From Gemmatimonadales bacterium (GTDB lineage Bacteria; Gemmatimonadota; Gemmatimonadetes; Gemmatimonadales; GWC2-71-9), in NCBI GenBank assembly GCA_036395695.1, contig DASWDA010000075.1, positions 13,441 through 77,440 of the forward strand: 64,000 bases of DNA, in the 5' to 3' direction. Position 1 is the first letter of the stretch. Each line of letters starts with the position of its first letter. The translations under genes were made by a program, and so were the position numbers. This document shows positions 1-28,030 of this stretch, piece by piece. The notes under the pieces are model-generated. The model worked only from the letters and a program-made list of their open reading frames with translations. It did not search any database and was not told the DNA's origin.

Positions 1-810
1 GCGGTCGTGCACGTCATCCGCTGCTTCGAGGACCCCGACGTGGTGCACGTCATGGGGCCGGTCGATCCGGTGCGCGATCACGACGTGATCACGAGCGAGC
101 TGGCGCTCGCCGATCTCGCCGTCGTGGAGCGCCGGCTCGACAAGGCGCGGAAGTCCGCGCGCGCGGGCGACAAGGAGGCCCAGCTCGAGCTCGTCCTCCT
201 CGATCGCGTCGTGGCGGAGCTGAATCGCGGCCGCGGCGCACGCGAAGCCGGCGAAACCGCCGACGCGATCAAGTTCCTGCGCACGTTGGGACTGCTCACC
301 GCGAAGCCGATTCTCTACGCTGCCAACGTCAACGAAGACGACCTCGCAGCGGGCGGGGGCAAATGGCTCGACAAGCTGAAGGCCGCCGTGCAGACACACC
401 ATGAAGAAGCAGAGATCGTGCCCTTCTCCGCGAGGTTCGAGGCGGAGCTCGGCGAGCTGGCGGGCGAGGAGCGGCGAGAGTTCCTGTCGAGCGCCGGCGT
501 CGCGGAGCCGGGGCTCGACCGCCTGATCCACGCCGGCTACCACCTGCTCGGCCTGCAAACATTCTTCACCGTGGGCGAGAACGAGGTGCGGGCCTGGACG
601 ATGCACGCCCGCGGGACCGCCTTCGACGCCGCGGGCGAGATCCACTCCGATTTCCAGCGCGGGTTCATTCGCGCCGAAACGGTGGGCTTTGCGGAGTTTG
701 TGAAAGCGGGCAGCTACAAGGCTGCCCGCGAGCAGGGTCTGATCAGAAGCGAGGGGCGCGACTACGTCGTGAAGGACGGCGACATCCTGTTATTCCGATT
801 CAACGTCTAG
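1..810 (+). CDS. ychF: Ribosome-binding ATPase YchF, C-terminal ~270 aa (5' end lies outside the window)
   Basis: The frame is open from base 1. The translation ...VITSELALADL...LLGLQTFFTVGENEVRAWT...DYVVKDGDILLFRFNV matches the YchF helical insert and the TGS-like C-terminus. Confidence 0.9.
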   Translation, partial: AVVHVIRCFEDPDVVHVMGPVDPVRDHDVITSELALADLAVVERRLDKARKSARAGDKEAQLELVLLDRVVAELNRGRGAREAGETADAIKFLRTLGLLTAKPILYAANVNEDDLAAGGGKWLDKLKAAVQTHHEEAEIVPFSARFEAELGELAGEERREFLSSAGVAEPGLDRLIHAGYHLLGLQTFFTVGENEVRAWTMHARGTAFDAAGEIHSDFQRGFIRAETVGFAEFVKAGSYKAAREQGLIRSEGRDYVVKDGDILLFRFNV

Positions 811-2045: not shown

Positions 2046-2263
2046 GACGTCCCGCCAAAACCTGTCCCGTGTGCGAGTCCGGCGCGCGCGTGCTCGACTA
2101 TAAAGATGACCGGACGTTGAGCCGCTTTCTCACGGAACGCGGAAAAATTTTGCCGAGCCGGCTGTCGGGCATGTGCGCGCGGCACCAGCGGCAGCTCGCC
2201 ACGGCGATCAAGCGCGCCCGGCAGCTGGCGCTGCTTCCGTATATCAAGGGGCACACCGCATAG
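2042..2263 (+). CDS. rpsR: 30S ribosomal protein S18
   Basis: [51 protein letters not shown] matches S18. A GTGA overlap joins it to the rpsF stop. Confidence 0.95.
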
Positions 2264-2304
2264 CCGCCCCCGCTCGTCCCGCCCAGGAGTCGTGGTGGCG
2301 TCTG

Positions 2305-3228
2305 GTGCTGGCGCTGCTCGCATTCCTGCTGTGGGCGCACCCGAGCCTCGTGGGATTACCGTGCGCGGCGCTGCTCGTCCTCGGGCCCCCTCTGCCCCGC
2401 GCCAAACCCGGCTGGTCTCAGCCCATCGCCGGGATGATCGGCGCCGTCAGTCTGGCGCTGCTGGTGGTGAGCGGCGGCAATGGGAGCCGGCTCGGCGCCG
2501 CCACGAGCGCCTACATCGTGCTCGCCACCGCGGCGTTCGTGTCCCTGGTGCTGCTCCGGCCGGACACGATCCTGCGCCAGGCGTTCCGGTCGACCGTGGC
2601 GGCCGGAGTCGCGACCGCCCTGCTGATTCAGGTGATGTGGGGACCGGACGCCTGGGGCTCGCTCGGCTGGGAGGCGACGCGCGAAGCGAGTCTGACGATG
2701 CGAACGATGGTGCAGATCGCGCCTGACGCCTTCTCCATTTATGAGCCGATGGTCCGCTTCATCAGCGCCACGTGGCCTGGGATGCTGGCGCTGCAGACGC
2801 TCGCCGGACTGGCACTGGCGTGGCAGCTGCACCGCCGCATCGCCGCGTCCGGGCCGGCCACCAGCGCGCCGCTCATGCGGTTCAAGGACTTCTACATCGG
2901 CGACGGTTGGGTCTGGGGCATCGTCGCCTGGCTCGCCGTGCTGATTCTGCCGGTCTCGAGCGTCCTGCACGTCGCCGGCACCAATGTGGGACTCGTGGCG
3001 AGCACGCTGTATGTGCTGCGCGGCGCGGCGATCGTCGCGACCTTCGCCGAGGCGTTCGGCATTTCGGCGGTGGCGCTGGTGATCGTGGGGGCCGCCGCGG
3101 CGGCGCTGGCCGTGCCGCTGGTGTTCGTGCTCCCGGGCCTGTGCACGCTCGGCATCACCGATACGTGGTACCAATACCGCCGCCGTCTGGCCGAAGCCAG
3201 GCAGCGACAGCGGCCCAACACACCCTGA
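2305..3228 (+). CDS. DUF2232 (YybS-like) polytopic membrane protein
   Basis: It has multiple hydrophobic helices and a C-terminal LGITDTWYQYRRRL resembling the DUF2232 end motif. Its position between rpsR and rplI is conserved, as in the Bacillus yybS region. The start is uncertain: GTG 2305, or ATG 2173 overlapping rpsR. Confidence 0.6.
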   Translation: MLALLAFLLWAHPSLVGLPCAALLVLGPPLPRAKPGWSQPIAGMIGAVSLALLVVSGGNGSRLGAATSAYIVLATAAFVSLVLLRPDTILRQAFRSTVAAGVATALLIQVMWGPDAWGSLGWEATREASLTMRTMVQIAPDAFSIYEPMVRFISATWPGMLALQTLAGLALAWQLHRRIAASGPATSAPLMRFKDFYIGDGWVWGIVAWLAVLILPVSSVLHVAGTNVGLVASTLYVLRGAAIVATFAEAFGISAVALVIVGAAAAALAVPLVFVLPGLCTLGITDTWYQYRRRLAEARQRQRPNTP

Positions 3229-5491: not shown

Positions 5492-5834
5492 TCTCACACA
5501 CGTCCTAGACGCATTGGTGGACCGCAAGGCGGTCGATCCGGTAGTTTTGGACTTACGTGGCCTGTCGGGCGCGACCGATTATTTCGTGATCGTGTCGGGG
5601 ACCTCGGCCGCGCACGTGCGCGGGATGGCGGATCACCTCGTGACGGCACTCGCGCCGCGGGGCTTGAAGCCCCATCATGTGGAAGGGCTGGCGCAGGGCC
5701 GGTGGGTGTTGCTCGACTATGTGGATTTCGTCGTGCACGTCTTTCACCCGGAGCTGCGCGAGTTTTACCAGCTCGAGCGGCTGTGGGGCGACGCTCCTGT
5801 CGTCGCCGCGGGCGATGACGGAGGCTCGAAATGA
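5481..5834 (+). CDS. rsfS: Ribosome silencing factor RsfS (iojap family)
   Basis: ATDYFVIVSGTSAAHVRGMADHL...WVLLDYVDFVVHVFHPELREFYQLERLWGDA matches RsfS. Confidence 0.9.
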   Translation: MKTDLTHVLDALVDRKAVDPVVLDLRGLSGATDYFVIVSGTSAAHVRGMADHLVTALAPRGLKPHHVEGLAQGRWVLLDYVDFVVHVFHPELREFYQLERLWGDAPVVAAGDDGGSK

Positions 5835-8800
5835 CTCGTGTGGCGGTGTTTGCGGCGTTCCTCGTGCTTACGGCACAACCGCTGGCTGCGCAGTACTTCG
5901 GCCAGAACAAGGTGCAGTACAAGAACTTCCACTTCCAATCGATTCAGACCGAACACTTCGACATCTACTATTATCCCGATGAGCGGGGCGGCGCGCTCGA
6001 CGCGGCACGCATGGCGGAGCGCGCGTATGCGCGTCTGTCGCGCATCCTCCATCACCAGTTCCAGAGCCGCAAGCCGATCATCCTGTACGCCTCGCAGTCC
6101 GATTTCCAGCAGACGAACGTCGTCGACGCCACGGGTGAGGGACTGGGCGGTGTCACGGAGTTCTTCAAACACCGTGCGGTGCTGCCGTTCACCGGCTCGT
6201 ACGCCGAGTTCGAGCACGTGCTCCAGCACGAGATGGTCCACCAGTTCCAGTACGACGTCTACAGCCGCGGCCACGCGGGCGCCGGCGTGCAGACGCTGGT
6301 TGCCGTCAATCCGCCGCTCTGGTTTATGGAAGGGATGGCCGAGTACCTGTCGCTCGGGCCGATCAACACGGAGACGGCGATGTGGCTGCGCGACGCGGCC
6401 CTCGAGGGCCACCTCCCCTCGATCGAGGAAATGACGTCCGATCCCTACATCTTCCCCTACCGGTACGGCCACGCGCTGTGGGCGTACATCGGCGAGAAGT
6501 GGGGCGACGAGGTGATCGGCGAGATTCTGCAGAGCTCCGCTACGTCGGGGCTCGATGCGGCATTCAAGCGCGCGCTGGGCCGGTCGCTCGAGGATCTCTC
6601 GAACGACTGGCGCGACGCCATTCAGACGACATTCCTGCCGCAGCTCGGCGATCACTATCGCGCCCGGCGGATCGCGGAGCCGACGCTGACCGAGCGGCGC
6701 TCGCACGGGCGGATTTTCCTCGCCCCCGCGCTCACACCGGACGGGAAGACCCTGGCGTTCTTCGGCGATGAAGGCGGGTTCTTCGTCGATCTGTGGCTCG
6801 CGGATGCCGAGACCGGGCGCGTCCGGCAGCGGCTCGTGAAATCGACGCAAAACAGCAACTACGAGAGCCTGCGCTTCATCAATTCGGCGGGCGCGTTCTC
6901 TCCCGACGGCCGCTCCTTCGCGATCGCCGCCAAGCGGAAAGACCGCGACGATCTCGTCATTCTCGACGTGAAACGGGGCCGCGAAGAGCGGCGCATCCAC
7001 GTGGGCCTGAGCGGGCTGCAGACACCGCAGTGGTCGCCCGACGGGCAGCAGCTCGTCTTCACCGGCTTCCGCAACGGCTTCACGGACCTGTACATCATCA
7101 ACCGCGACGGCACCGGCCTGCGGCGGTTGACCGATGACAAGGACGCCGATCTGCATCCGTCGTGGTCGCCCGACGGCAAGACGATCGCGTTCGTCACCGA
7201 CCGGGGCGGCGAGACCGATTTCGATCTGCTGCGGTTCGGGAATCTGCGAATCGCCCTGCTCCACCTGGACAGCGGCGCCATCGAGGTCCTCGGCAACATG
7301 GGGACCGGCAAGAACATCAACCCGGTGTGGGCGCCCGATGGCCGGTCGCTGGCGTTCGTGTCCGACCGCACCGGCATCAGCAACGTGTTCTTGTACGAAT
7401 TCGACGACGGCCAGATCTATCAGCTCACGAATCTGTTCACCGGCGTGCAGGGCATCACGCCCCTGTCGCCCGTGCTCACCTGGGCGCCGCAGGCAGACCG
7501 CATGGCGTTCGTGTATTACGAGGACGGCCAGTACAGCGTGTACTCGGTGGAGAATCCACGCTCGCTGCGCCGCGCGCCCTATCATGGACCCGCGTCGCAG
7601 CCGGTCGTGACGCTGCTCGAGGCGGAAGGGCGAGACACGTTACTCAAGGCGCCGCCGCCAGTCGCGCTGGGGGGAACGGGCACCGCGACGAGTCTGCCGC
7701 GCCTGCCCGCGCCGGCGTCCATCTATCGGTCGGCAGCGGGATTCCGCCCCTCCGCGCTGCCGCCGCAGGCCGAAGCAGCCGCGACGCCGCCCCCCGTGAC
7801 GGTGCGCGGGCTCCTCGACTCCGCCACGCTCGCGTTGCCCGACACGAACGAGTTCACCTTCAAGCCGTACAAGGTGCGATTCACGGCCGACTACGTGGTG
7901 CGTCCGACAATCGGCTACGAGCGGGACAATTTTGGCCGCGGCGTGTTCGGCGGTACGGCGATCGCGCTGTCCGACATCCTCGGCAATCATTCCGTCGTGA
8001 TCGCCGGGTCGGTGAACGGCCGCATCGGCGAAGCGCAATTCCTCGGGGTGTACGTCAATCAGACCCATCGGCTGAATTGGGCCGGCGGCTTCTCACAGGA
8101 TCCGCTGTATTTCTACGGCGGCAGCGACTGGACACGGACCGCCGATACGCGGCAGCCCGGCGACAGCCTCGACGTCTTCACGACGCGGATCCGGCGCTTT
8201 GTCGTGCGAGACCTGTTCACCGAGTCGTCCTATCCGTTCAGCCGTTTCAATCGCGTCGAGCTGGGCCTGCACGCCGTCAACATTGCCGAAGCGACCCTGG
8301 CTCTCCAGACGTCGTACAACGCGACCACCGGAGGGTTGGTCGGCCAGCAGCTCGTGCAGGGCGGCGGCCCGTCGGCGACGTATGTGCAACCGTCGATCGC
8401 GCACGTGCACGACAACACGCTGTTCGGGTACGTCGGCCCATTCGCCGGCGCGCGCTCGCGGCTGTCCATCGCGCCGGCATTCGGCAGTTGGCGCTTCACG
8501 GCGGGCCTGGTCGACTACCGGCGCTACATCTTTGTCCGGCCGTTCACGCTCGCCGTGCGCAGCGTGATGTTCGGCCGCTTTGGACGCGATGCCGACCACT
8601 TTCCCGTCTTCCTCGGCAGCACCGACCTGATTCGCGGCTACACCTCCGGCTCGTTCCGGAGCCACGAGTGTGCCGCCGCCACACAGCAAACCTCGCAAAC
8701 GGGATGCGCCGAGCTCGATCAGTTGATCGGCTCGAAGATCGCGGTCGGCAACGTGGAATTGAGATTCCCGCTGACACGCAACCTCGTGCTGGGCTTTCTT

Positions 8801-9055
8801 CCGGTGGGCTTCCCGCCGATCGAAGGCGCGATCTTCTACGACATCGGAATGGCGTGGGACGATGCGAGCACCGTCAAATGGAACCGCGCTGCGACCGACG
8901 ACCCTGTACTCGTTCGCCAGCCGCTGCGCAGCTGGGGAACGTCGATCCGCGCCAACGTCTTCGGTCTGCTCATCATGCGGTTCGACTACACCCGGCCACT
9001 CGATCGGCCGCTGAAACGGTCGTATTGGACCATCAGTTTAGGTCCGACGTTCTAA
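5831..9055 (+). CDS. Outer-membrane protein: signal peptide, HExxH peptidase-MA-like domain, PD40/TolB-like beta-propeller and Omp85 (surface antigen D15) barrel
   Basis: The signal peptide is MTRVAVFAAFLVLTAQPLAAQ. The HExxH region reads HVLQHEMVHQFQ ... WFMEGMAEY. Repeated PD40 signatures are FSPDGRSFA, WSPDGQQLVF, WSPDGKTIAF, WAPDGRSLAF. The C-terminus LIRGYTSGSF...VGNVELRFPL...EGAIFYDIGMAW...WTISLGPTF ends in Phe like an OMP. An ATGA overlap joins it to rsfS. Confidence 0.75.
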   Translation: MTRVAVFAAFLVLTAQPLAAQYFGQNKVQYKNFHFQSIQTEHFDIYYYPDERGGALDAARMAERAYARLSRILHHQFQSRKPIILYASQSDFQQTNVVDATGEGLGGVTEFFKHRAVLPFTGSYAEFEHVLQHEMVHQFQYDVYSRGHAGAGVQTLVAVNPPLWFMEGMAEYLSLGPINTETAMWLRDAALEGHLPSIEEMTSDPYIFPYRYGHALWAYIGEKWGDEVIGEILQSSATSGLDAAFKRALGRSLEDLSNDWRDAIQTTFLPQLGDHYRARRIAEPTLTERRSHGRIFLAPALTPDGKTLAFFGDEGGFFVDLWLADAETGRVRQRLVKSTQNSNYESLRFINSAGAFSPDGRSFAIAAKRKDRDDLVILDVKRGREERRIHVGLSGLQTPQWSPDGQQLVFTGFRNGFTDLYIINRDGTGLRRLTDDKDADLHPSWSPDGKTIAFVTDRGGETDFDLLRFGNLRIALLHLDSGAIEVLGNMGTGKNINPVWAPDGRSLAFVSDRTGISNVFLYEFDDGQIYQLTNLFTGVQGITPLSPVLTWAPQADRMAFVYYEDGQYSVYSVENPRSLRRAPYHGPASQPVVTLLEAEGRDTLLKAPPPVALGGTGTATSLPRLPAPASIYRSAAGFRPSALPPQAEAAATPPPVTVRGLLDSATLALPDTNEFTFKPYKVRFTADYVVRPTIGYERDNFGRGVFGGTAIALSDILGNHSVVIAGSVNGRIGEAQFLGVYVNQTHRLNWAGGFSQDPLYFYGGSDWTRTADTRQPGDSLDVFTTRIRRFVVRDLFTESSYPFSRFNRVELGLHAVNIAEATLALQTSYNATTGGLVGQQLVQGGGPSATYVQPSIAHVHDNTLFGYVGPFAGARSRLSIAPAFGSWRFTAGLVDYRRYIFVRPFTLAVRSVMFGRFGRDADHFPVFLGSTDLIRGYTSGSFRSHECAAATQQTSQTGCAELDQLIGSKIAVGNVELRFPLTRNLVLGFLPVGFPPIEGAIFYDIGMAWDDASTVKWNRAATDDPVLVRQPLRSWGTSIRANVFGLLIMRFDYTRPLDRPLKRSYWTISLGPTF

Positions 9056-9078
9056 CTCCGCTTCGCCAAAACAGTTGC

Positions 9079-9119
9079 AATGGCCTCGCCGGTTGTCTAT
9101 TTTGTCCGGCGAGGCCATT
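9079..9119 (+). terminator. Perfect 14-bp GC-rich hairpin 24 nt after the OMP stop codon; either a terminator or a start-site-sequestering structure
   Basis: The structure is AATGGCCTCGCCGG, a 13-nt loop TTGTCTATTTTGT, then CCGGCGAGGCCATT. Only a weak T tract follows. Both candidate starts of the next gene (ATG 9080, TTG 9119) lie inside the arms. Confidence 0.45.
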
Positions 9120-10504
9120 TGCCGAACTCTCGCTTCCTTCTCCTGTCGATGATCACGCTTTGGGGTTGTGGACCCAAAGCGCCGGCGGCTGGATCGTCAC
9201 AACAACAAACACCGCAACGTGTTAGCGAACTCCAGATCCTCGCGCGCTCGCCCGGCGTCGCGATCAGGCTGCCTGCCAAAGGCGGGACGCCGCAGCTCTA
9301 CCGCCTTCCCCGGCTTACGGCCGTCGAGGGGGTGCTGAAGGGCAAACTGCCCCCCGTGGAGCGCGTCATAGGGCTCGATCCGGAATCCGAGTTTCTGTTT
9401 GTCACGACGGCCAAGCATGAGCTGCTCGCGCTCGATCTCGGCAGCGGTCGCGTGGATACCGTCGGCACCACGATCCGGCAGGCCGCCCTCGGCCCGGACG
9501 GCACGCTCTACGCCGTGGATTCGTCCCGGCGCGTCATCTCGCTCTCGCGCCGCACCCGCTTCACCTGGCCCCAGGCGCTGACGGCGCTCCCGCGCGAGCT
9601 GTTTGGCGCGACGGATCAGCATCTCGTCGGCGTGATCCCGCAAGACAAACTGTTGATCGCCGCGGCCGATCAGCCGCCGACCGTGCGGACGATCGCCGCG
9701 GGCGGTGACGTGGCGGCGACACGCTGGGGCGATCTCGTGGCGGTCGCGAGTGATTCGGGCATCACCTTCTATGATCCACTCGGCCGCCGCGACCCGTCGT
9801 TCGTGAAACTGGCCGATGCCCCGCGCGCGCTCGCCTTCTCGCCATCGGGCCATCGCATTTATGTCGCGCGGCGCAATGTGCCCGGTCTCGCGGTCGTCGA
9901 CCGCTACGAGCGCACGGAGCTCGACGGCGTCGCGCTCCCCGGTCCCGTCGCCGCGCTGCGCCTCGACCCGCTCGGCCGCTGGCTGCTCGCTCGTCCGGCC
10001 GTGGGGGACTCGGCGTGGATCGTCGATCTGCCGATCAAGCGCCACACCGGCATCGTGCCCACCCAATGGCAGTCCGACTTGCCGTCGATCTCTCCCGACG
10101 GGATGCTGATCTACCGGCGCGGGAAAGACGTCGTCTCGGCACGACCCGACTCGCTGAACGACCATGGGAAGGTCACAAACGGCGCGGCCGATATCTGGGT
10201 GCTGACGTCGTGGCTGCCGCGCGGTGTACCCGCGAGCACGGTGAGTGCGGCGAGCTCGGACAGTTCGGGCACGGGCGCGGAAGGCCCGCTCTACGTCCAG
10301 GTGTCCACGTCGCAGAACTCCGAGTGGTCGGGACATCTCGCTGACGACCTCACGCGCGCCGGTTTGGCCGCGCGCGTGCTGCCACCGCAGCATCCTGATG
10401 ACGGCTATCGCGTCGTGCTCGGTCCCTACGCAACGCGCGAGCAGGCTGAGGCCACGGGCCGGCGGCTGGGCCGGCCATTCTGGATCTACCAACCGGGACA
10501 GTGA
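9119..10504 (+). CDS. Lipoprotein with a beta-propeller-like central region and a C-terminal SPOR domain
   Basis: From TTG 9119 the N-terminus reads (M)PNSRFLLLSMITLWGC, a lipobox-type signal; ATG 9080 is the alternative start. The C-terminus YVQVSTSQNSEWSGHLADDLTRAGLAARVLPP...YRVVLGPYATREQAEATGRRLG is SPOR-like. Confidence 0.65.
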   Translation: MPNSRFLLLSMITLWGCGPKAPAAGSSQQQTPQRVSELQILARSPGVAIRLPAKGGTPQLYRLPRLTAVEGVLKGKLPPVERVIGLDPESEFLFVTTAKHELLALDLGSGRVDTVGTTIRQAALGPDGTLYAVDSSRRVISLSRRTRFTWPQALTALPRELFGATDQHLVGVIPQDKLLIAAADQPPTVRTIAAGGDVAATRWGDLVAVASDSGITFYDPLGRRDPSFVKLADAPRALAFSPSGHRIYVARRNVPGLAVVDRYERTELDGVALPGPVAALRLDPLGRWLLARPAVGDSAWIVDLPIKRHTGIVPTQWQSDLPSISPDGMLIYRRGKDVVSARPDSLNDHGKVTNGAADIWVLTSWLPRGVPASTVSAASSDSSGTGAEGPLYVQVSTSQNSEWSGHLADDLTRAGLAARVLPPQHPDDGYRVVLGPYATREQAEATGRRLGRPFWIYQPGQ

Positions 10505-11772
10505 CCACCGTCCGGCAGCTGCCGCTCTCGCGGCTCGGGCATCTGGTTCCGCCGCTCCTTGACGGCGCGGCGCTGGTCGGCCTGATGCCCGTCGGCAGCG
10601 ATCCGCAGTGGGCGGCAAAGGCCGCATGGGACATCGCGCGCATCGCCGCGCGCGACGGGCGGCGCGTCGCACTCGTCGACCTGTGCCTCGAGAATCCTGC
10701 ACTCCACGAAACCGTGGGGCTCCAGGCCACCGAAGGCATCGTCGACGCGTTCGAATACGGCGTTTCGCTGAACAAGGCGGCGCATGAAGTGACCGGCGTC
10801 TTCATTATTCCCGCGGGCTCTGAGACTGCGCATCCCGCGGAGGTCTACGCCCATGCGCGGTGGCGGAAGCTGCAAGCCGGATTCCGCTCCGAAGGCGCGC
10901 TCCTGCTGGCGCTCATACCACGCGCCGGACTGGCGCAGCTCTCGGCAGATCCGGACGGCGTGTTCGTCCTCGCCCCGGAAGGTGTGAGTCCCGCGTTTGC
11001 GCTGGGACGGGATGTGCCGCTGCTCGGCGTCGTCCGCGATCGGTGGTTGCCGTCGAATGGGAGCGCACGCGTATCACCGCTGCCCCGAACAATGCCGGTC
11101 GAGGAGACACCGCGGCGTGGGCTGCGGGTCGCGCTGGCCGCGCTGATCGTAGCGGGACTCGCCGTGGGAGGATGGGCACTGCTGGCGCGAGCGCGCGAGG
11201 CGCTCATCGCGCCCCCGCCGGCTAGTCCGCCGACGGCCACTCCTCCGCCTGCTCCCACGGCTCCCCCGTCCTCGACAACATCCACCAACCTCCACCAACC
11301 GCCACCGGCACCCGCAGTTCGCGTCGACACGTTGGGGTGGACCATTCAGCTCGCCGCGTACGCCTCACTCGACAAGGCGCTGGCGCACGCTGACCGGCTC
11401 GCGGCCGACGCGGGCGTGCCGGCCCTCGTCACGCCGGTGCCGCAGAGCGGCAGTGGCCCCGTCTGGTATCGCGTGCTCGCCGGCTCCTACGCCACGCGCG
11501 CGGACGCCGGCACCGCCCGAGCGGGGATGTGGCGCCGCGGTGTCGCCGCCGAGGGCGTAGGCGACATATTGCTGGCCCCCTATTCCTACCACGCGCCGAC
11601 CGGCGCGACGGTCGATATGCTGCGGCGCCGCGGCCTGCCCGCGGTGCGCTGGTCCAATGGGGTGATTTTGCTGGGCGCGTTCGAAGCACCTGAGCAGGCC
11701 GCATTCACGCAGGCCGCACTCAAGCGCGCCGGCGTGCGCGCGAACCTCCTCCCTCGCATGGGGACACCATGA
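10501..11772 (+). CDS. Bitopic membrane protein: degenerate BY-kinase/MinD-like P-loop fold, TM helix, Pro-rich linker and SPOR domain(s)
   Basis: The N-terminal ~175 aa align by eye to the CpsD/MinD fold (RVALVDLCLENPALHETVGL...GIVDAF...VFIIPAGS), but GSDPQW replaces Walker A G-x-GK[ST]. The TM helix is LRVALAALIVAGLAVGGWALLA, followed by a PPPASPPTATPPPAPTAPP linker. The SPOR region is WTIQLAAYASLDKALAHADRL...WYRVLAGSYATRADA. GTGA and ATGA overlaps join it to both neighbours. Confidence 0.6.
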   Translation: MTTVRQLPLSRLGHLVPPLLDGAALVGLMPVGSDPQWAAKAAWDIARIAARDGRRVALVDLCLENPALHETVGLQATEGIVDAFEYGVSLNKAAHEVTGVFIIPAGSETAHPAEVYAHARWRKLQAGFRSEGALLLALIPRAGLAQLSADPDGVFVLAPEGVSPAFALGRDVPLLGVVRDRWLPSNGSARVSPLPRTMPVEETPRRGLRVALAALIVAGLAVGGWALLARAREALIAPPPASPPTATPPPAPTAPPSSTTSTNLHQPPPAPAVRVDTLGWTIQLAAYASLDKALAHADRLAADAGVPALVTPVPQSGSGPVWYRVLAGSYATRADAGTARAGMWRRGVAAEGVGDILLAPYSYHAPTGATVDMLRRRGLPAVRWSNGVILLGAFEAPEQAAFTQAALKRAGVRANLLPRMGTP

Positions 11773-14700
11773 GACTGAGCAGGCTCGAGCTCTCTGGATT
11801 CAAATCATTTGCGGGCGCGGTGGAGCTGCCGTTCGATCAAGGCGTCACCGCGATCGTCGGGCCGAACGGCTGCGGCAAGTCGAACATCTCGGACGCGGTG
11901 CGCTGGGTGCTCGGCGAACAGTCGCCGCGCCTCTTGCGCGGTGGAAAAATGGAAGACGTGATCTTTCAGGGATCCACCGGCCGCCGGCCCGTGAACGTCG
12001 CCGAGGTCTCTCTCGTCTTCGATAACTCCGACGGTAGTCTCCCCGTCGCGTATCAAGAGGTCGTCGTCACCCGGCGGCTGTCGCGCTCGGGACAAAGCGA
12101 CTACCTGCTGAATCGCTCGCCGGTGCGGCTGCGCGACATCCAGGACATGCTGAGTGGCACCGGCCTGGGTGCCGACGCCGCCGTCGTCATGGAAGCGAAG
12201 ATGATCGAAGCGCTATTGTCCGAGAAAGCCGAGGAGCGGCGGGGGCTCTTCGAGGAGGCGGCAGGAATCGGACTGTATCGCAACCGCAAAGAGAGCACCG
12301 AGCGGCGGCTCGAGGAGACGGCCGCCGATCTGGCGCGGCTCGAGGACCTCATCGCCGAGGTGCAGACGCAAGTCCGCAGTCTCGCGCGCCAGCGCGGCCG
12401 CGCCGAGCGCTACGGCAAAATGATCGAAGAGCGCTTTGGCGTCGCGATGACGCTGGTGCGGCGCGAGATCGAGGACTTCGACCTCTCCCTCGGCGCGCTC
12501 GGCGTCCGAGCCCGCGAGCTGGCCGAGCAGCTCCCCGCCGCACGGGCCCGGCTCGAGGATGCGGAGCACCAGCGCGAAGTCCGCGTGCAGGCGAGGCATA
12601 CGGCGGAAGCGCGGCGCACCGAAGTCGAACGCCGGCTGGGTGACGCCCGGCTCGAGGTCGGGCGGCTCGAGAGTGATCTCGCGCTCGCCGCCGAGCGGCT
12701 CGGCAACGCCGGGCAGCGGCGCCAGACCGCGGCGGATGAGCGCGTCCAAGCCGAGCGGCGCGCCGCGCAGGCGGAACGCGAGCATGCGGCGGCCGCCGCC
12801 GAGCGCACGGGCGCCGAGCGCGACCTCGCCGCCGTGCAGCGTGAGCTCGGCGCGCGGACCGGCGACGAAGACAGCGTCCGGGGCCGGCTGACGGCGGAGC
12901 GGCAGGCGGTGCGTGAGCTCGAGGAAGGACTGCAAGGACGCGCGGAGGCGGCGCGCGCGCTCGAGATCGAAAGCGGCGCATTGGACCGCGAGCGCAGCGA
13001 GTTGCGCGAGCAGCTGGCGCTGGCAACCGCCGAGCGCCAGGACCGCGATGCCGCGGCCCATGACGCGGCGCGCGACGCCGAGACTGCCGCACAGCGCGTC
13101 CACCACGGTGCGCAAGGCGCGCTCAGAGCGGTGGAGGCCCTCCAGCACGCGCGGCGGCACGTCGCCACGCTCCACGAACAAGAGATGAGCGCGCGCTCGG
13201 CCCGGCGTCAAGCGGAGGCCGCGCTGGCGCAGCTCGAGGCCCGGCGCGACGCCCTCGGCGAGCTCGACCGCGAGCACGTCGGCCTCGCGCCCGCGGCGCA
13301 GACGTTGCTGAAGGCCAAGAGGCAATTCGGCGACGGGACGGTGCTCGGTCCGCTCGCCGATTTCGTCCGCACGAGCCGGCGCGATGCCGAGCTGGCGGAG
13401 CGGTTGTTGGGCGAATGGCTCCACGCGGTGCTGGTGCGCGACGCGTCGGTGATCGACGCGATCACGGCCTGGCACGCCGAGACACAACCGGGCCCCCTCG
13501 TCCTGCTGCCGTGCGTTCCGGGCCCCCGGCTCGGCGCCGACGGCCATCCGCTCAAGGACGAGCTGCGAGTGGATGGACCTGCCGCCGCGTGGGTCCACGC
13601 GTTGCTCGCGGGACACGAGGTCATCGGTGCAGGGTCGCTGCGGCGCGCCAATGGCGCGGTGTTCCTCGACAGCAGCGCCCGTGCCGCCGGACCGCTACAG
13701 CGCCGTGCCGAGCTGGAAGCGCTCGAGAAAGATGTGCGGGAGGCGACGAAGAATCTCGATCGCGCGCGCGCCGCCGAAGAGTCCACGCTGAAAGAGCTCA
13801 CGGCCGCGGAAACGGCGCTCACGGCCGCCGGGAATGGGGCCGAGCAGGCACGCCGCGTAGAGCTCGAGGCCGGCGCGGAGAAGGGCGAAGCGGACCGCGG
13901 GCTGATTCACGCGCGCCGCCAGGCCGAGGAATCGGCCGCGCAGGTGGAGCGCCTCACCAAGCGGCTCGCCGAGGTCGAGCTGCGGGTTGGCGCGGTCCAC
14001 GTCGAGCTGCAGGAGCGCGAGGTCGAGCGGCTCCGCTCGGCGGAGGAGCTGGGCGCCGAGCGCGCCGGCTTGGCCGATCTCGAGGCGCAGCAGGAGGCCG
14101 CGCGCGAGCAGCGCGTCCGCTGGCAGGTCGAAGCCGCCCAGGTGGAAGCCCGTCTCGCCGCAGCCTCCGAGCGCGCCACGCGCGCCGACACCGACGCCAA
14201 GGCGTCGCGCGAGCAGGCCGGCGCGCGGGCGGAGGAGATCGCGCGCATCGAGCACGAGACCGGGACACTCACCACACAGCGTGCGCAGTGGCAGGACGCG
14301 CTCCAGGAACGCCGCGTTGCATTGACCGAGCTGGAAACGGCCGCCACGGACGCCGAAGCCCAGGTGGGCATGACTGACGCCGACCTCGGCCAGGCGGAAG
14401 GCGCGCTCGATCAGGCGCGCAAGGCGCTCGCCGCTCTGGGCGAGGAGGAGCACCGGCTCCAGCTCCAGCGCACGGAAGCCGAAGGCCGCAAGCGCGGACT
14501 CGTCGAGCGCGTGGAAACCGAGTGGCGCAAGCCGCTCGACCAGCTCCTGGTCGACGCGCCGGAGGTCGCCGGCGACCTCGAGTGGTTACGGCAGGAGAAC
14601 GACCGGCTGCGCGGCGCGATCGACGCCGTCGGCCCCGTGAACGCGCTCGCCGTCGAGGAGCACGCCGAGGAAACGAAGCGGCTCGAGTTCCTGCAAACGC

Positions 14701-15236
14701 AGCGGGACGATCTCGTGACCGCCCGCAACTCGCTGCAGCAGGCCGCGCGGGAGATCGATCAGACCGCGAAGACGCTCTTCTTGGAGTCGTTTGCCAAAGT
14801 ACGAGAACACTTTCGGTCCGTGTTCCAGACGTTGTTCGGCGGCGGCGAATGCGACGTGCGTCTCGCGAATGAGGATGAGCCTCTCGAGAGCGAAATCGAA
14901 ATCCACGCCGCGCCGCGGGGGAAGCGCACGCAGCGAATCCACTTGCTGTCGTCCGGTGAGCGCACCCTGGTCGCCGTGTCGCTGCTGTTCGCGATCTTCC
15001 TCGCCAAGCCGAGCCCATTCTGCCTGCTCGACGAAGTCGACGCGCCGCTCGACGACGCCAATGTCGGGCGCTATGTGCGGCTCCTGGCCGAGTTCAAGGA
15101 CCAGACGCAGTTCATCGTCATCACGCACAACCCACGGACGATGCAGGCGGCTGACGCAGTCTATGGCGTCACCATGCAGGAGCCGGGGGTCTCCACTATC
15201 GTTGGAGTCCGTCTCGGTCAAATGGAACCGGCCTAG
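11769..15236 (+). CDS. smc: Chromosome partition protein Smc
   Basis: MRLSRLELSGFKSFA...IVGPNGCGKSNISDAVRWVLGEQS is the Walker A head. Long coiled coils follow. The C-terminal head has LSSGERTLVAVSLLFAIF...FCLLDEVDAPLDDAN. Confidence 0.95.
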   Translation: MRLSRLELSGFKSFAGAVELPFDQGVTAIVGPNGCGKSNISDAVRWVLGEQSPRLLRGGKMEDVIFQGSTGRRPVNVAEVSLVFDNSDGSLPVAYQEVVVTRRLSRSGQSDYLLNRSPVRLRDIQDMLSGTGLGADAAVVMEAKMIEALLSEKAEERRGLFEEAAGIGLYRNRKESTERRLEETAADLARLEDLIAEVQTQVRSLARQRGRAERYGKMIEERFGVAMTLVRREIEDFDLSLGALGVRARELAEQLPAARARLEDAEHQREVRVQARHTAEARRTEVERRLGDARLEVGRLESDLALAAERLGNAGQRRQTAADERVQAERRAAQAEREHAAAAAERTGAERDLAAVQRELGARTGDEDSVRGRLTAERQAVRELEEGLQGRAEAARALEIESGALDRERSELREQLALATAERQDRDAAAHDAARDAETAAQRVHHGAQGALRAVEALQHARRHVATLHEQEMSARSARRQAEAALAQLEARRDALGELDREHVGLAPAAQTLLKAKRQFGDGTVLGPLADFVRTSRRDAELAERLLGEWLHAVLVRDASVIDAITAWHAETQPGPLVLLPCVPGPRLGADGHPLKDELRVDGPAAAWVHALLAGHEVIGAGSLRRANGAVFLDSSARAAGPLQRRAELEALEKDVREATKNLDRARAAEESTLKELTAAETALTAAGNGAEQARRVELEAGAEKGEADRGLIHARRQAEESAAQVERLTKRLAEVELRVGAVHVELQEREVERLRSAEELGAERAGLADLEAQQEAAREQRVRWQVEAAQVEARLAAASERATRADTDAKASREQAGARAEEIARIEHETGTLTTQRAQWQDALQERRVALTELETAATDAEAQVGMTDADLGQAEGALDQARKALAALGEEEHRLQLQRTEAEGRKRGLVERVETEWRKPLDQLLVDAPEVAGDLEWLRQENDRLRGAIDAVGPVNALAVEEHAEETKRLEFLQTQRDDLVTARNSLQQAAREIDQTAKTLFLESFAKVREHFRSVFQTLFGGGECDVRLANEDEPLESEIEIHAAPRGKRTQRIHLLSSGERTLVAVSLLFAIFLAKPSPFCLLDEVDAPLDDANVGRYVRLLAEFKDQTQFIVITHNPRTMQAADAVYGVTMQEPGVSTIVGVRLGQMEPA

Positions 15237-15239
15237 GTT

Positions 15240-15278
15240 CCCCCCCCGAGGCCCGAACCCCTAACCCCTAGCCCCTAG
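15240..15278. repeat. C-rich/G-rich intergenic element (copy A), G-quadruplex-prone on the minus strand
   Basis: CCCCCCCCGAGGCCCGAACCCCTAACCCCTAGCCCCTAG lies between the smc stop and the S8 peptidase ATG. By hand alignment 29 of 35 positions match copy B at 23161-23195. Confidence 0.7.
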
Positions 15279-15280
15279 TA

Positions 15281-17554
15281 ATGCGGCGGTTCTTCTGGCT
15301 TCTGTTCCTGCCTGCCGGGCTGGCCGCGCAGCGTCCCGCGGTATCCCCGGCGTTGCCCCGGCTGCTCGCCCGCCGCCCGGACACGACGGTTTCCGTCTGG
15401 CTGTTCGCGCGGCCGACCGCCTCGCTCGACTCGGTCAGCGCACGGGTGGCGGTGGCGGGAGGGAACGCCCGTGTACGAGTGGTGAGCCGCTGGCTGCATG
15501 CCGTCAGCGCGGACGTGCCGGCGGCCGCGCTCCGGCAGCTGCTGCAGGACCGCGACCTGCGACGGATCCAGCCGCTGGGACGCTTCAAGGTCCGGCAACA
15601 GAGCCCCGTCCTCCGCAGTATCACCGCACCAACGCAAGGACCGGGCGACACGTGCGGCGTCACGCCCGGCGACGATCCCGTGCTGGGCCCGTCGGCGATG
15701 CCATACCGCCAGCTCCACCTCCGGCCGCTCACCGATCAGGGCATCGACGCGACGGGCGTCCGCATCTTGATCCTCGATGCGGGCTTCGACACCGCGAACC
15801 CCGCGTTCAACGGCGTCACGATCACCGCACAGCACGACTTCGTATTCAATGACGACACCGTGAAGGACCAGCCGGGCAAGGACGTGAGCGGGGCGCAATT
15901 TCACGGTACCGCAACGTGGTCGCTGTTCGCCGGTGAGGTTGCGGGCCGGCTTCACGGCATCGCACGCGGCGCGAGTTTCCTGCTTGCCAAGACCGAAGAC
16001 ATCCGCAGCGAGACACGTGTCGAGGAAGACAACTACGTCGCCGCGCTCGAGTGGGCCGATTCGATCGGCGTGGACATCGCCTCTTCAAGCCTCGGCTACT
16101 ACGCCTTCGACAATGGCTTCAGCTACACGCCGTCGCAGCTGAACGGCGACGTCGCGGTGACGACGGTCGCCGCCGATCTGGCTGCGCAGCGCGGCATTCT
16201 CGTCGTCACCGCCGCCGGCAATGACGGGCCGTCCTCGCGCTCGATCTCCACGCCTGCCGACGGCGATTCCGTGTTGACGGTCGGCGCGGAGGATTCACTC
16301 GGTACGATCGCGGCCTTCTCGTCGCGCGGCCCGACTGCCGATGGGCGCATCAAGCCGGACTTCACGGCCCCAGGGGTCGCCGTCTGTGTCGTCACGGGCG
16401 TCGGCCAGGTGCGGCGCGAGCAGGGCACCTCGTTCGCCACCCCCCTGCTCGCCGCCAGCGCGGCACTCGTGAAGCAGATGCATCCAGCGCTGCTCCCCAT
16501 GGACGTGCGGGCCGCGTTTCGCAGCACGGCGACCAAGCGCGCCGCCCCCGACACGATCTCCGGCTGGGGCCGGCCGGACGTCGCTGCCGCCGCGGTGTTT
16601 CCCGGCGGCGTCGCCGCGACTTCCCCGCTGCCCGCCGCCGGCCCGTTGACGACGATCACCCCGACGTTCTCCTGGACCGTGGGCACGGTGCCCGCTTCCG
16701 CCTCACCGGTGACCTATCGGCTCCGGATCAGCCGCGACAGCACGCTGGCTGCCCCCATCGCCGACACGGCGCTCAGCGCGCAAGCGTTCGCGCTCACCGC
16801 CGCGCTCAAACCGGGCAACGTGTTCTGGCGCGTTGATGCGACGGCGGCGAGCGGCGAGACCGCGACGAGCGGTGTGATTGGACCGGTCGTCCTACCAGCC
16901 TGGGCGACGCTGACGTCGCTCAGCAATCCCGCCGGCATGGTCATCGACACCGCCCAGCCGACGTTCACGTGGAAGCCGGTGCAGGTCTCATCTCCGCCGG
17001 GGCCACTCGTCTTCGACCTGGACGTGCGGCGCGTCGCTACGGGTGTCACGGATTTCAACGTCGCGAATCTGACGGACACAAGCTTCGCGATCACGCAGCC
17101 GCTCGAGCGCAACACCGCGTATCGGTGGTTCCTGACGGTGCACGCCGGGCCCGATACGAGCACCGTCCGAAGCCAGGGATCGTTTCTCGTCGTAGATCTC
17201 GGTATGCCGACGTCGACCCTCCTCTACCAAAACTTTCCGAACCCCTTCCCCACCGCCGGCCGGGACTCGACCTGCCTGTGGTTTGACCTCGCATTGGCGG
17301 GGTCAGTCGACCTCGACATTCTCGATCTGCGCGGCAATCTCGTGCGCCGCTTCATTCCCGGGCCTGACTTCCCCGGCGTTTTGGCCCCTGGCCGCTATGG
17401 CCGCGGGTCGGGCAGCGGCGGGATCTGTGACCCGCGTCTGATGTGGGATGGCCGCGCCGGTAATGGGCACCTGTTGCCAGCGGGCGTGTATCTCGCCAAG
17501 CTCAAGGCGCCCGGCTTGCTGATCTTCAAGCGGATCGTCTTTCGCGGAAAGTGA
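15281..17554 (+). CDS. Secreted S8 (subtilisin-family) serine peptidase with a FlgD-Ig/T9SS-like C-terminal domain
   Basis: The signal peptide is [17 protein letters not shown]. The catalytic triad contexts are [17 protein letters not shown] and [10 protein letters not shown]. The C-terminus is [10 protein letters not shown]...[16 protein letters not shown]...GVYLAKL. Confidence 0.85.
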
Positions 17555-18330
17555 GTATGGAACTCGTTACCGTCGGCACCGGCACGGTTGCACCCTCGGC
17601 CCGCCGCACCTGCCCCTGTCACTGGGTCGCGCGCGGCGATCTGCGCGTGCTGCTCGACTGCGGCTCGGGCGCGCTGCACCGGCTGGCGGAGTTCGGGTTG
17701 CCCTGGCATCAGGTGACGCACGTCATCCTGACGCACTTCCATCCCGATCACTGGAGCGACCTGCCGATGCTCGTGTACGCGCTCAAGTACACGACGGAGC
17801 CGCCGCGCCGCGAGCCGTTCGTGATCCTCGGGCCGCCCGGCGTCGTCCAGCTGCTGCGCACGCTGGCCGAGGGCTACGGCGACTGGCTGCTCGACCCCGG
17901 GTTCCCCATCGGCATTCTCGACGTGCGCGACGCCGAGCCCTTCCCGCTCAACGCGGACGTGAATCTCGAGACGTTCCCCGTTCCCCACACCACCGAGAGC
18001 GTGGCCGTTTCCTTGACGGCACCGGAGGGACGCCTCGTCTACACCGGCGACACCGGGCCGAGCAGCGAGCTGGCGCGGTGGGCAAGCGGGTGCGACGTGC
18101 TGCTCTCGGAATGTTCCTTGCCGGAAGAGCGGGCGATGGATACCCACCTGACGCCCCAACAGGCTGGGGATCTGGCCAAGGAAGCGGGAGCGAAGCGCTT
18201 AGTCTTGACGCACTTCTATCCTCCAGTAGAAACTTCGGACCCGGCGAAAATTGCGGGCACGCGCTTTGGCGGCCCGGTGTCGGCGGCGAAGGATGGCGAT
18301 CGCTTCACTATTGGAGATGGGAGACGCTAG
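17551..18330 (+). CDS. MBL-fold metallo-hydrolase (RNase Z/BN-like)
   Basis: [13 protein letters not shown] is an HxHxDH-type motif, and ...VLTHFYP lies near the C-terminus. The start is GTG 17551 (GTGA overlap) or ATG 17557. Confidence 0.7.
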
Positions 18331-26441: not shown

Positions 26442-27320
26442 GTGTCCACACGCACGACGTACACGGTGACCTTCTGGGGAACCCGGGGGAGTATTCCTAC
26501 TCCCGGGCTCGCGACGTCGCGGTACGGCGGCAACACGCCGTGCGTCGCCGTGGAAGGCACAGGAGGCCAACTCGTCGTGCTCGACGCCGGTACCGGAATC
26601 CGGGCGCTGGGGCTCGATCTGGTGGCGAAACAAAACGGCGCCGCCCGTGTCGAAATTCTGCTGTCGCACGCGCATTGGGACCACATTCAAGGGCTGCCGC
26701 ACTTCAAGCCGTTCTTCGCGCCGGGCAATTCGGTGCGGATCTGGGGATCGCGTCAGGGGACGACCTCCCTCGAGGCCATCCTGCGGCAGCAGATGGATCC
26801 GGCGGTGTTTCCGGTGCCGCTCGATGCGTTGTCGGCGAAGTTGACGGTGCAACAGGTGGACACGGACGACTTCTCGATCGGCGAGTTTCGGGTCCGGACG
26901 ATGAAGTTGCGGCACCCGGGAACGACGTTGGGATTCCGGCTGACCCCCGTGAAGGGCGGGCCCAGCCTCGCCTATGTGACGGACAACGAGCTCGGCGCAG
27001 GCGGCCAGTACGACGTGTCGAAGACCTGGCGCCGCGATTTCGTGACGTTCTTGAAGGGCGTCGAGCTCTTGATCCACGACGCGATGTACACGCCGAAGGA
27101 GCTGGAGCAGCACCGCGGCTGGGGCCACTCGACCTATGAAGAAGCGGTGACCCTGGCTCAGGATGCCGGCGCGACGAAGCTCGTGTTGTTTCACCACGAG
27201 CCCGAGCACGGCGACGAAGAGATGGATGGCTTGCTGGCGGCGGCGCGCAAGTACGCGAAGGCGCGCGGAGGTTCGCTCGAAGTGGTAGCCGCCCAGGAAG
27301 GCATGAAGGTGACCCTGTGA
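26442..27320 (+). CDS. MBL-fold metallo-hydrolase (Lactamase_B_2-like)
   Basis: TFWGTRGSIPTPG...YGGNTPCVAV...LLSHAHWDHIQGLPHF...LVLFHHEP. Confidence 0.7.
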   Translation: MSTRTTYTVTFWGTRGSIPTPGLATSRYGGNTPCVAVEGTGGQLVVLDAGTGIRALGLDLVAKQNGAARVEILLSHAHWDHIQGLPHFKPFFAPGNSVRIWGSRQGTTSLEAILRQQMDPAVFPVPLDALSAKLTVQQVDTDDFSIGEFRVRTMKLRHPGTTLGFRLTPVKGGPSLAYVTDNELGAGGQYDVSKTWRRDFVTFLKGVELLIHDAMYTPKELEQHRGWGHSTYEEAVTLAQDAGATKLVLFHHEPEHGDEEMDGLLAAARKYAKARGGSLEVVAAQEGMKVTL

Positions 27321-27334
27321 CCGAAGGAGTAGCT

Positions 27335-28030
27335 ATGCGCACGCGTGCAGTCATGACGGTCCTGAGCCTGGTTCCGGTGCTCCTCGCTGCGCAGCAGCGC
27401 AGCCAGGATACCCGCCCCGGTATCGCCGTCCTCCCCTTCAGCAACGGTGGCTCCTACGGTCAGGGCAAAGAAGATTTCGACGCCCTGGAGCGCGGCATCG
27501 CCGGGATGATGATCTCCGAGCTGGAACAGAATCCGGCGGCGCGTCTGGTCGAGCGCCAGGAAATCCAGCACCTGGTCGACGAGCAGAACCTCGGTGCGCA
27601 AGGCCGCGTGGATGCCCAGACCGCCGCCAAGGTCGGGAAGCTCGTCGGCGCCCGCTACGTCGTGCTCGGCACCTTCATTGATTTCTACGGTGACTTCCGC
27701 GTCGACGTCCGCCTCGTGAACACCGAAACGAGCGAAATCGTAAAGACCGAGTCGGAACGGATGCAGCGCGATCACATGTTCGACATCATCCGCAACATCG
27801 CGGCGCGGCTGATGAAGGACGCGAATCTCCCCGCGCTGCAGCGCCAGGCGTCGGACCAACGCATGAGCCGCCAGATTCCGACGGAGGCCCTGACGTACTA
27901 TTCGCGCGGCCTGCTGTACCAGGATCGCGGCGACAAGGCGAAGGCGGCCGACATGTTCACGCACGCCCTCGACATCTTCCCCCAATACGCTGAGGCCCAG
28001 GAAGGCCTGCAGCACGTGAAGTCGTCCTAA
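27335..28030 (+). CDS. CsgG/LpoB-like periplasmic protein with a C-terminal TPR
   Basis: The signal peptide is MRTRAVMTVLSLVPVLLAAQQ. GIAVLPFSNGGS...LVERQEIQHLVDEQNLG...AAKVGKLVGARYVVLGTF is CsgG-like. The TPR-like tail is ALTYYSRGLLYQDRGDKAKAADMF. AAGGAG lies 6 nt upstream of ATG 27335. Confidence 0.55.
   Translation: MRTRAVMTVLSLVPVLLAAQQRSQDTRPGIAVLPFSNGGSYGQGKEDFDALERGIAGMMISELEQNPAARLVERQEIQHLVDEQNLGAQGRVDAQTAAKVGKLVGARYVVLGTFIDFYGDFRVDVRLVNTETSEIVKTESERMQRDHMFDIIRNIAARLMKDANLPALQRQASDQRMSRQIPTEALTYYSRGLLYQDRGDKAKAADMFTHALDIFPQYAEAQEGLQHVKSS

Follow-up and report, generated by a model that had tools for sequence, protein, structure and literature searches.

A BY-kinase-fold pseudokinase with periplasmic SPOR domains, translationally coupled to smc in Gemmatimonadota

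Within a 64,000-nucleotide stretch of DNA from a Gemmatimonadales bacterium (GenBank assembly GCA_036395695.1, contig DASWDA010000075.1, positions 13,441 to 77,440 of the forward strand; henceforth the window), the gene directly upstream of smc (henceforth gene X) is predicted to encode a 423-residue membrane protein containing, in this order, a pseudokinase domain with the fold of bacterial tyrosine kinases (BY-kinases), a transmembrane helix, a linker and two SPOR domains, SPOR1 and SPOR2. Gene X represents a new domain family and a new architecture assembled from two known modules, and across the phylum Gemmatimonadota its translation is coupled to that of smc, with an unusually rigid linkage of the two genes. 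We propose that its product is a septum-targeted BY-pseudokinase scaffold, co-translated and coordinated with SMC, and we give this explanation, taken as a whole, about an even chance of being right. The features of gene X and smc are listed here by their coordinates in the window.

10501..11772, + strand: gene X, bitopic membrane protein of 423 amino acids (open reading frame (ORF), relatives, AlphaFold2 (AF2) model)
10501..11055, + strand: cytoplasmic BY-kinase-fold domain, catalytically degenerate, residues 1-185 (AF2, Foldseek, profile against Wzc)
11125..11193, + strand: single transmembrane helix, residues 209-231 (hydrophobic 19-mer in nearly all relatives; model helix 209-234)
11203..11328, + strand: Pro/Thr/Ala-rich disordered periplasmic linker, residues 235-276 (15 Pro in 42 residues; predicted local distance difference test (pLDDT) score 53-61)
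11335..11544, + strand: SPOR1, canonical, residues 279-348 (Pfam PF05036)
11563..11754, + strand: SPOR2, degenerate SPOR-like repeat, residues 355-418 (hhalign against SPOR1; model topology)
11769..11772, + strand: ATGA stop/start overlap of gene X and smc (sequence)
11769..15236, + strand: smc, 1155 amino acids (Pfam SMC_N, E = 9.7e-70, and SMC_hinge)

Gene X begins with a GTG codon at 10501, which shares the sequence GTGA (10501-10504) with the stop of an upstream ORF, UP1, and it ends with a stop codon at 11772 on the + strand. Its GC content at third codon positions is 0.795, close to the 0.80-0.86 of the neighbouring genes. In a search of 5.8 billion proteins in which only 8000 candidates were scored, 717 clusters (90% identity) matched gene X at E <= 1e-3, and we therefore take gene X to be a real gene; identity was 76-100% in all 120 matches listed. 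An exhaustive search with the N-terminal domain alone (henceforth the N-domain; query residues 1-190) returned 1130 clusters at 50% identity, 473 of them at E <= 1e-10. Hidden Markov models (HMMs) built locally for the N-domain, SPOR1 and SPOR2 identified N-domain, transmembrane helix and SPOR domain(s) as the dominant architecture among full-length relatives. Mean identity to the gene X query was 42% for the N-domain and 31-32% for the SPOR domains, which ranks the N-domain as the most conserved part in a set of relatives that were themselves chosen by N-domain similarity, while the Pro-rich linker was the least conserved stretch. All motif and residue counts below refer to 112 divergent relatives that span the family. 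These relatives also yielded an AF2 model of gene X with a mean pLDDT of 87.7; a shallow alignment (61 sequences, 79-96% identity) had given an unusable model with a pLDDT of 40.2.

Fold and catalytic motifs of the N-terminal domain

A first-pass annotation of the window, made from the sequence alone, had described the N-domain as a P-loop domain of a "BY-kinase/MinD-like" kind. In the AF2 model residues 10-180 reach a pLDDT of 94-98, and when the model was compared with the PDB by Foldseek, ranks 1-43 were all occupied by BY-kinases, with Wzc (3la6, E = 2.1e-9) as the best match and VpsO (6u1q), BceF (6z0p), CapAB (4jlv, 2ved and 3bfv) and Etk (3cio) following within E = 2e-9 to 1e-6. The target-normalised TM-scores against BY-kinases were 0.5-0.69. 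The first match of ParA type, Soj (1wcv), appeared at rank 44 (E = 3e-6, 24% identity over 144 columns). Sequence comparisons pointed the same way: a profile of 18 distant N-domains aligned with Wzc across 114 positions (E = 5.3e-6) and matched Etk, BceF and VpsO as well; a distant N-domain profile run against a large protein database reached "non-specific protein-tyrosine kinase" at E = 1e-4; and phmmer with the single gene X sequence matched BceF, VpsO and Wzc in the PDB over residues 42-131. Among NCBIfam models, the single sequence matched TIGR03018 at E = 3.7e-6, with 26.4 bits against a cut-off of 230.65, and it likewise stayed below the cut-offs of TIGR01007 (eps_fam; 11.3 against 108.05 bits), the Wzc model PRK11519 (12.9 against 1068 bits) and the KGGVGR-AAA variant model (21.1 against 90 bits).

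As modelled, the gene X N-domain has the P-loop fold of BY-kinases, and to this extent the first-pass annotation was right. Its MinD-like half can be refined: MinD/ParA was rejected as the parent family, BY-kinases being nearer in both sequence and structure, and gene X carries neither the deviant Walker A motif KGGxGK[ST] nor the signature Lys of ParA/MinD. Residues 1-270 gave no match in a Pfam scan, and a scan of 18 divergent N-domains returned nothing significant (CbiA in one of the 18, at E = 0.14), so the N-domain is not a Pfam family. The family that it defines lies outside Pfam and comprises 1130 clusters or more at 50% identity. Databases label its bearers only "SPOR domain-containing protein [Gemmatimonadales bacterium]" or, in annotations of the Joint Genome Institute (JGI), "cell division septation protein DedD".

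The catalytic motifs were located by alignment to Wzc and within the family:

10591..10617, + strand: degenerate Walker A, V31-GSDPQWAA-A39 (HMM alignment to Wzc)
10672..10698, + strand: degenerate Walker A', L58-VDLCLENP-P66 (HMM alignment to Wzc; only the first Asp, D60, retained)
10897..10920, + strand: Walker B-equivalent strand, A133-LLLALI-P140, no Asp (family alignment; model strand 134-138)

In the Walker A motif, the residues P-S-I-G-K540-T of Wzc align with D34-P35-Q36-W37-A38-A39 of gene X, such that G-K-T is replaced by W-A-A. W37 and A38 each recur in 87 of the 112 relatives, none of which has a Lys at the Walker A position or a GK[ST] at the P-loop. The Walker A' residues I-D-C-D-M-R of Wzc align with V59-D60-L61-C62-L63-E64: D60 is present in every relative, position 62 holds Ser, His, Phe or Cys, and position 64 is Glu or Asp in 97/112, opposite in charge to the Arg of BY-kinases. 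The Walker B-equivalent strand is hydrophobic at all positions across the family, without an acidic residue. A Tyr-rich tail is likewise missing, as the stretch from the last strand to the transmembrane helix is devoid of Tyr in 97 relatives, gene X included, and the motif EX2RX2R upstream of Walker A, which serves oligomerisation and ring contacts, occurs in 0/112. The readings GSDPQW (Walker A), VDLCLEN (Walker A') and LLLALIP (Walker B without its Asp) put forward in the first-pass annotation all agree with these alignments.

Judged by its sequence, gene X carries none of the five defining motifs tested and is not a BY-kinase. Because Walker A, Walker A' (except D60), Walker B, the Tyr-rich tail and EX2RX2R are all lost, we classify the N-domain as a pseudokinase, and in sequence and predicted structure gene X agrees with the structural criteria by which EcpK and HfsB are called BY pseudokinases (PMC12004946). 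The N-domain most likely neither binds nor hydrolyses nucleotide. In the mechanism we envisage, the bulky conserved W37 would occupy the site of the P-loop Gly that forms the anion hole, and the N-domain would act as a nucleotide-independent interaction platform. We hold with high confidence that the cytoplasmic domain of gene X is a BY-fold pseudokinase, most likely serving as a nucleotide-independent, protein-binding scaffold.

Loss of catalysis has not relaxed the N-domain, which is strongly constrained. No relative departs from D60, G79, G106 or W121, R120 is found in 111 and D82 in 107 of the relatives, and F84, G127 and F128 are nearly invariant. Gene X and BY-kinases also have non-catalytic motifs in common, namely G-I-V-D-x-F (G-L-S-E-I-L in BY-kinases), IPAG...P-x-E, and H-P-R-W (S-E-R-F or H-P-R-F in BY-kinases). 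The strict conservation of charged residues in or around what used to be the active site (D60, D82 and R120) could be taken to mean that the N-domain is still an enzyme or a nucleotide sensor that holds its ligand through non-canonical residues near D60, D82, R120 and W121. We consider this very improbable: the P-loop has neither Lys nor Ser/Thr, a Trp replaces the anion-hole Gly, the Walker B acid is gone, and GK[ST] is found in not one of the 112 relatives. Moreover, R120, the P112/E114 loop and G79-x-x-D82 match BY-kinase motifs outside the catalytic centre (SERF/HPRF and GLSEIL of Wzc) and may be determinants of the fold rather than ligand contacts.

Membrane topology and SPOR domains

Gene X has no signal peptide, and its folded domain of cytoplasmic type is followed by one transmembrane helix and then by the linker and the SPOR domains. 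From this order we infer a bitopic protein with a cytoplasmic N-terminus. The single helix and Pro/Thr-rich linker, and the presence of one clear and one probable SPOR domain, had all been anticipated in the first-pass annotation and proved correct.

SPOR1 is recognised by Pfam PF05036 over residues 279-340 (E = 6.8e-11, 42.8 bits against a gathering cut-off of 21). In FtsN, residues Q251, W283 and R285, and in RlpA residues Q270 and R309, contact denuded glycan and are required for septal localisation (PMC6895207). The FtsN positions correspond to Q283, W/Y322 and R/K324 of SPOR1, which are retained in 89, 97 and 103 of the 112 relatives, respectively. Since these Gln, Trp and Arg glycan contacts are retained, SPOR1 would bind denuded glycan and thereby enrich the gene X protein at the constricting septum. 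Going by what is known of the SPOR family, we think it fairly probable that this periplasmic part concentrates gene X there.

SPOR2 went undetected by Pfam. In a profile-profile comparison (hhalign) it matched SPOR1 with 95% probability (E = 2.6e-8), the SPOR1 HMM directly matches SPOR2 in several relatives, and the model gives it the same beta-alpha-beta-beta-alpha-beta topology as SPOR1 at a pLDDT of 93-98. SPOR2 has Leu and Leu/Tyr in place of the glycan-contacting Gln and the basic residue, and because these two are lost, SPOR2 is probably not a second peptidoglycan binder in the canonical way. This degenerate copy would more probably have a structural or protein-binding role.

The SPOR domains make a conventional role conceivable, in which gene X is an ordinary SPOR accessory of the divisome or of peptidoglycan synthesis, of the DedD/DamX/FtsN type, whose pseudokinase binds the divisome only and whose linkage to smc is a mere operon. 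The JGI name given to relatives speaks for it, as does a weak match of the SPOR region to the FtsN equivalog model, and E. coli DamX and DedD stimulate PBP1A/1B (PMC7642682). The FtsN match (TIGR02223) is confined to the SPOR region, residues 280-348, and scores 17.7 bits against a cut-off of 107.65; on this sequence evidence gene X is not an FtsN equivalog. Furthermore, our literature searches found no SPOR protein whose cytoplasmic domain has a P-loop or kinase fold, the BY-kinase fold included, and no account of the architecture of gene X or of its linkage to smc; searches on division and SMC in Gemmatimonadota returned nothing relevant.

Linkage to smc and a proposed role

The first-pass annotation had noted that the stop codon of gene X and the start codon of smc share an ATGA, and had made its proposal depend on gene X being syntenic with smc in relatives. 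The overlap and the synteny both hold. Gene X is adjoined downstream by smc in 76/76 informative loci, and in 70 of them the two genes overlap by 4 nucleotides. The junction measures -1 or 0 nucleotides in three other loci, and one assembly, visibly frameshifted, has a gap of 566 nucleotides. When GTDB was scanned with one genome for each species, 66 gene X loci were recovered, all in Gemmatimonadota metagenome-assembled genomes (MAGs). Matches to the distant profile that bear a name were assigned to Longimicrobiaceae, Longimicrobium, Gemmatimonadaceae, Gemmatirosa or Gemmatimonadota, such that every named member belongs to the Gemmatimonadota.

Adjacency to smc persists where the genes upstream differ. 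Among divergent relatives recovered independently, P0211 (locus L067) and P0254 (L069/L070) are preceded by rpsF-rpsR-DUF2232-rplI-rsfS, without UP1 or the gene upstream of it in the window, UP2, and have smc directly downstream; smc also follows gene X at P0251 (L068). A long Gemmatimonadota contig reads rplI-rsfS-PD40-PD40-SPOR-X-smc, and among 16 further metagenomic loci of Longimicrobiaceae type, all 10 that extend past gene X have an adjacent smc. We rejected the view that the linkage is mere collinearity of close relatives, as the overlap is kept with entirely different genes upstream. Because the junction is retained across a rearranged upstream context, it appears to be under selection.

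Another candidate form of the locus, in which gene X is split, came from short relatives (165-260 amino acids, "N-domain only") on long contigs and was not adopted. At one such locus (L072, 7001-7777) gene X is a short N-domain ORF among neighbours that are also fragmented, making an assembly frameshift likely. At another (L071, 7001-8286) it appears as an N-domain ORF plus a 149-residue SPOR piece, and the neighbours look intact.

The persistence of the junction bears on the ordinary divisome accessory introduced above. The gene X-smc junction outlasts the replacement of all upstream neighbours, and the 4-nucleotide overlap is kept down to 35% gene X identity, both of which speak against an incidental operon. 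Conserved operons whose products have no known interaction do exist: rnc-smc-ftsY is widely conserved in Firmicutes and has no known physical link. Taking both sides together, we regard such an accessory role as a real possibility, if not the probable one.

Several points weigh against a coordinating role. From the conserved adjacency and overlap one may read co-expression but not interaction, as the rnc-smc-ftsY example illustrates. All sampled loci come from one phylum, and shared ancestry inflates the 76 junctions as "independent" observations. The rate of evolution of gene X far exceeds that of SMC (identities of 35-92% and 54-98%, respectively, in the same GTDB loci). Two near-identical loci, L069 (7907-8122) and L070 (4309-4524), have a 214-nucleotide gap between gene X and smc. 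Finally, the loss of nucleotide binding is a prediction from sequence and a modelled structure. Two side observations belong here: L069 and L070 are the only well-assembled loci with gene X and smc separated, and no gene of the cluster evolves faster than gene X, whose identity is generally lower than that of UP1 and UP2 (loci L001-L066 compared with window positions 5831-18330).

In the septal scaffold that we propose, the partner of the cytoplasmic platform would be SMC-ScpAB, ParB or a component of the divisome. A possible parallel is CpsD of Streptococcus pneumoniae, a septal BY-kinase that is ParA-like in structure, binds ParB and has an influence on nucleoid segregation (PMC4574921). That the platform brings septum closure into step with the organisation or segregation of the chromosome is a tentative and rather unlikely part of the explanation, suggested by genomic context. 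A physical link of gene X to SMC or ParB, and with it the physical connection between chromosome organisation and septum put forward in the first-pass annotation, is conjecture from gene adjacency and translational coupling. In its strongest form, gene X would be a dedicated tether between septum and chromosome, with SPOR1 on denuded glycan and the platform, possibly as a ring like the octamers of Wzc or CapB, binding SMC-ScpAB or ParB directly; we consider this form distinctly doubtful. If it were true, there would be a physical coupling between the activity of condensin, or the clearing of the chromosome, and the processing of septal peptidoglycan, and Gemmatimonadota would have their own answer to the job done elsewhere by MatP-ZapB, Noc/SlmA or RocS-CpsD.

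Should the more general role hold, a division protein targeted by SPOR would have taken over the BY-kinase fold, stripped of its catalysis, as its cytoplasmic part, and gene X would be a simple and testable candidate for a phylum-wide coupling of condensin to septum closure. The labels of MAGs that contain gene X relatives include Gemmatirosa, Longimicrobium and Gemmatimonadaceae. Because these lineages include cultured members, experiments on gene X are feasible.

Neighbouring genes and comparison with known systems

Two further genes precede gene X in the window:

9080..10504, + strand: UP1, putative lipoprotein with a C-terminal SPOR domain, 474 amino acids (Pfam SPOR E = 1.8e-5, 25.4 bits against a cut-off of 21)
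5831..9055, + strand: UP2, 1074 amino acids; peptidase-like region, PD40 repeats, Omp85-type C-terminus (Pfam)

The N-terminus of UP1 resembles that of a lipoprotein (…LLLSMITLWGC), and a faint PD40 match lies in the middle of the protein. UP2 matches PD40 in five stretches (E = 2.2e-31), Omp85 (E = 4.2e-10) and BSP (E = 8.7e-5); its N-terminal matches are of BSP/Peptidase_MA type and its PD40 repeats are TolB-like. The combination is unusual, and UP2 could sit in the outer membrane and extend a propeller into the periplasm. With UP1 and gene X, three SPOR modules are encoded consecutively just 5' of smc.

These neighbours suggest that gene X could be the inner-membrane member of an envelope-spanning septal complex with UP1 and UP2, engaged in outer-membrane constriction in the manner of Tol-Pal. 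UP2, UP1, gene X and smc lie on one strand, separated by a 25-nucleotide gap and then two 4-nucleotide overlaps, and this gene order recurs in all Gemmatimonadales loci of sufficient length. The SPOR domain of UP1 and the TolB-like repeats and Omp85-type C-terminus of UP2 would suit such a complex. Against it, UP1 and UP2 are missing beside gene X in loci of Longimicrobiaceae type, where rsfS directly precedes gene X: among the 16 further loci of this type, none has UP1 upstream of gene X and one (L087) has a UP2-like gene. The conserved core is X-smc and not UP1-X. We hold such a complex to be improbable; it is compatible with the septal scaffold coordinated with SMC, and the two readings are not exclusive.

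The arrangement at some relatives (L067, L069 and L071), together with window positions 7-810 and 2173-3228, suggests rpsF-rpsR-DUF2232-rplI-rsfS-X-smc as the ancestral order. In the lineage of the window, a DegV/Dak2 (FakA-like) gene, UP2 and UP1 sit between DUF2232 and gene X, and ychF lies further upstream in both the window and L067. Downstream of smc, the window encodes an S8 subtilase (15281-17554, + strand, 757 amino acids) with a long C-terminal extension past Peptidase_S8, whose presence varies among relatives (noted for L031, L034, L036, L038, L039, L041, L043, L044, L049 and L056), and a gene of metallo-beta-lactamase fold (17551-18330) that directly follows smc in many relatives. 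Two other genes of the window have no evident link to gene X: a SpoIID-domain protein (39464-40768, - strand, 434 amino acids) and a CsgG/LpoB-like lipoprotein with a TPR repeat (27317-28030, + strand, 237 amino acids).

Among known systems, ParA, MinD and Soj share with gene X a related P-loop fold. By contrast with them, gene X has lost the Walker B Asp in addition to lacking their deviant Walker A motif and signature Lys.

The SPOR proteins DedD, DamX and FtsN of E. coli resemble gene X in their bitopic topology and C-terminal SPOR domain. Their cytoplasmic regions are short or unrelated and without a P-loop fold, and they have a single SPOR domain. We know of no linkage of the dedD, damX or ftsN genes to a condensin gene.

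Canonical BY-kinases (Wzc, Etk, CapB, VpsO, BceF and CpsD) are the best structural and sequence matches of gene X and have in common with it the motifs G-x-x-D/E-x-L/F, (I/L)P-x-G...P-x-E and (S/H)-x-R-(F/W). CpsD, septal and ParB-binding, provides a precedent for BY-kinase-fold proteins touching chromosome segregation (PMC4574921). Unlike canonical BY-kinases, gene X has no polysaccharide co-polymerase (PCP) partner or domain, and its membrane and kinase domains come in a different order.

The closest comparison is with EcpK of Myxococcus xanthus and HfsB of Caulobacter crescentus, BY pseudokinases that are proposed to act as phosphorylation-independent scaffolds for PCP partners (PMC12004946). 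The first-pass annotation knew of no characterised protein built like gene X, and our literature searches found none; scaffolds with a dead BY-kinase fold had nevertheless already been described, which gives the idea of a pseudo-ATPase scaffold a precedent in another architecture and context. Like gene X, EcpK and HfsB combine a BY-kinase fold with the lack of a catalytic Walker A/A'/B set and of a Tyr-rich tail, and, as we propose for gene X, they are proposed to work as membrane-associated scaffolds by contacting other proteins. This shared dead fold could mean that gene X is itself a PCP-associated BY pseudokinase of Wzx/Wzy export, an idea to which we give almost no credence. Neither a PCP-2 partner or fusion nor a Wzx/Wzy cluster surrounds gene X, and genes for PCP, Wzx, Wzy, Wza or glycosyltransferases are missing near it, in the window as in related loci. 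The topology is reversed, with the pseudokinase N-terminal to a single transmembrane helix, and the periplasmic part consists of SPOR domains and not of a Wzz/PCP domain.

EcpK and HfsB occur either alone in the cytoplasm or as a C-terminal fusion to a PCP-2 protein with two transmembrane helices, and they serve Wzx/Wzy polysaccharide export. Gene X, by contrast, places its pseudokinase first, follows it with one transmembrane helix and periplasmic SPOR domains, is coupled to smc away from polysaccharide genes, and has kept the first Walker A' Asp, which is invariant in its family. If the role proposed here is true, the concept of the BY pseudokinase, so far confined to polysaccharide export, would extend to the control of the cell cycle.

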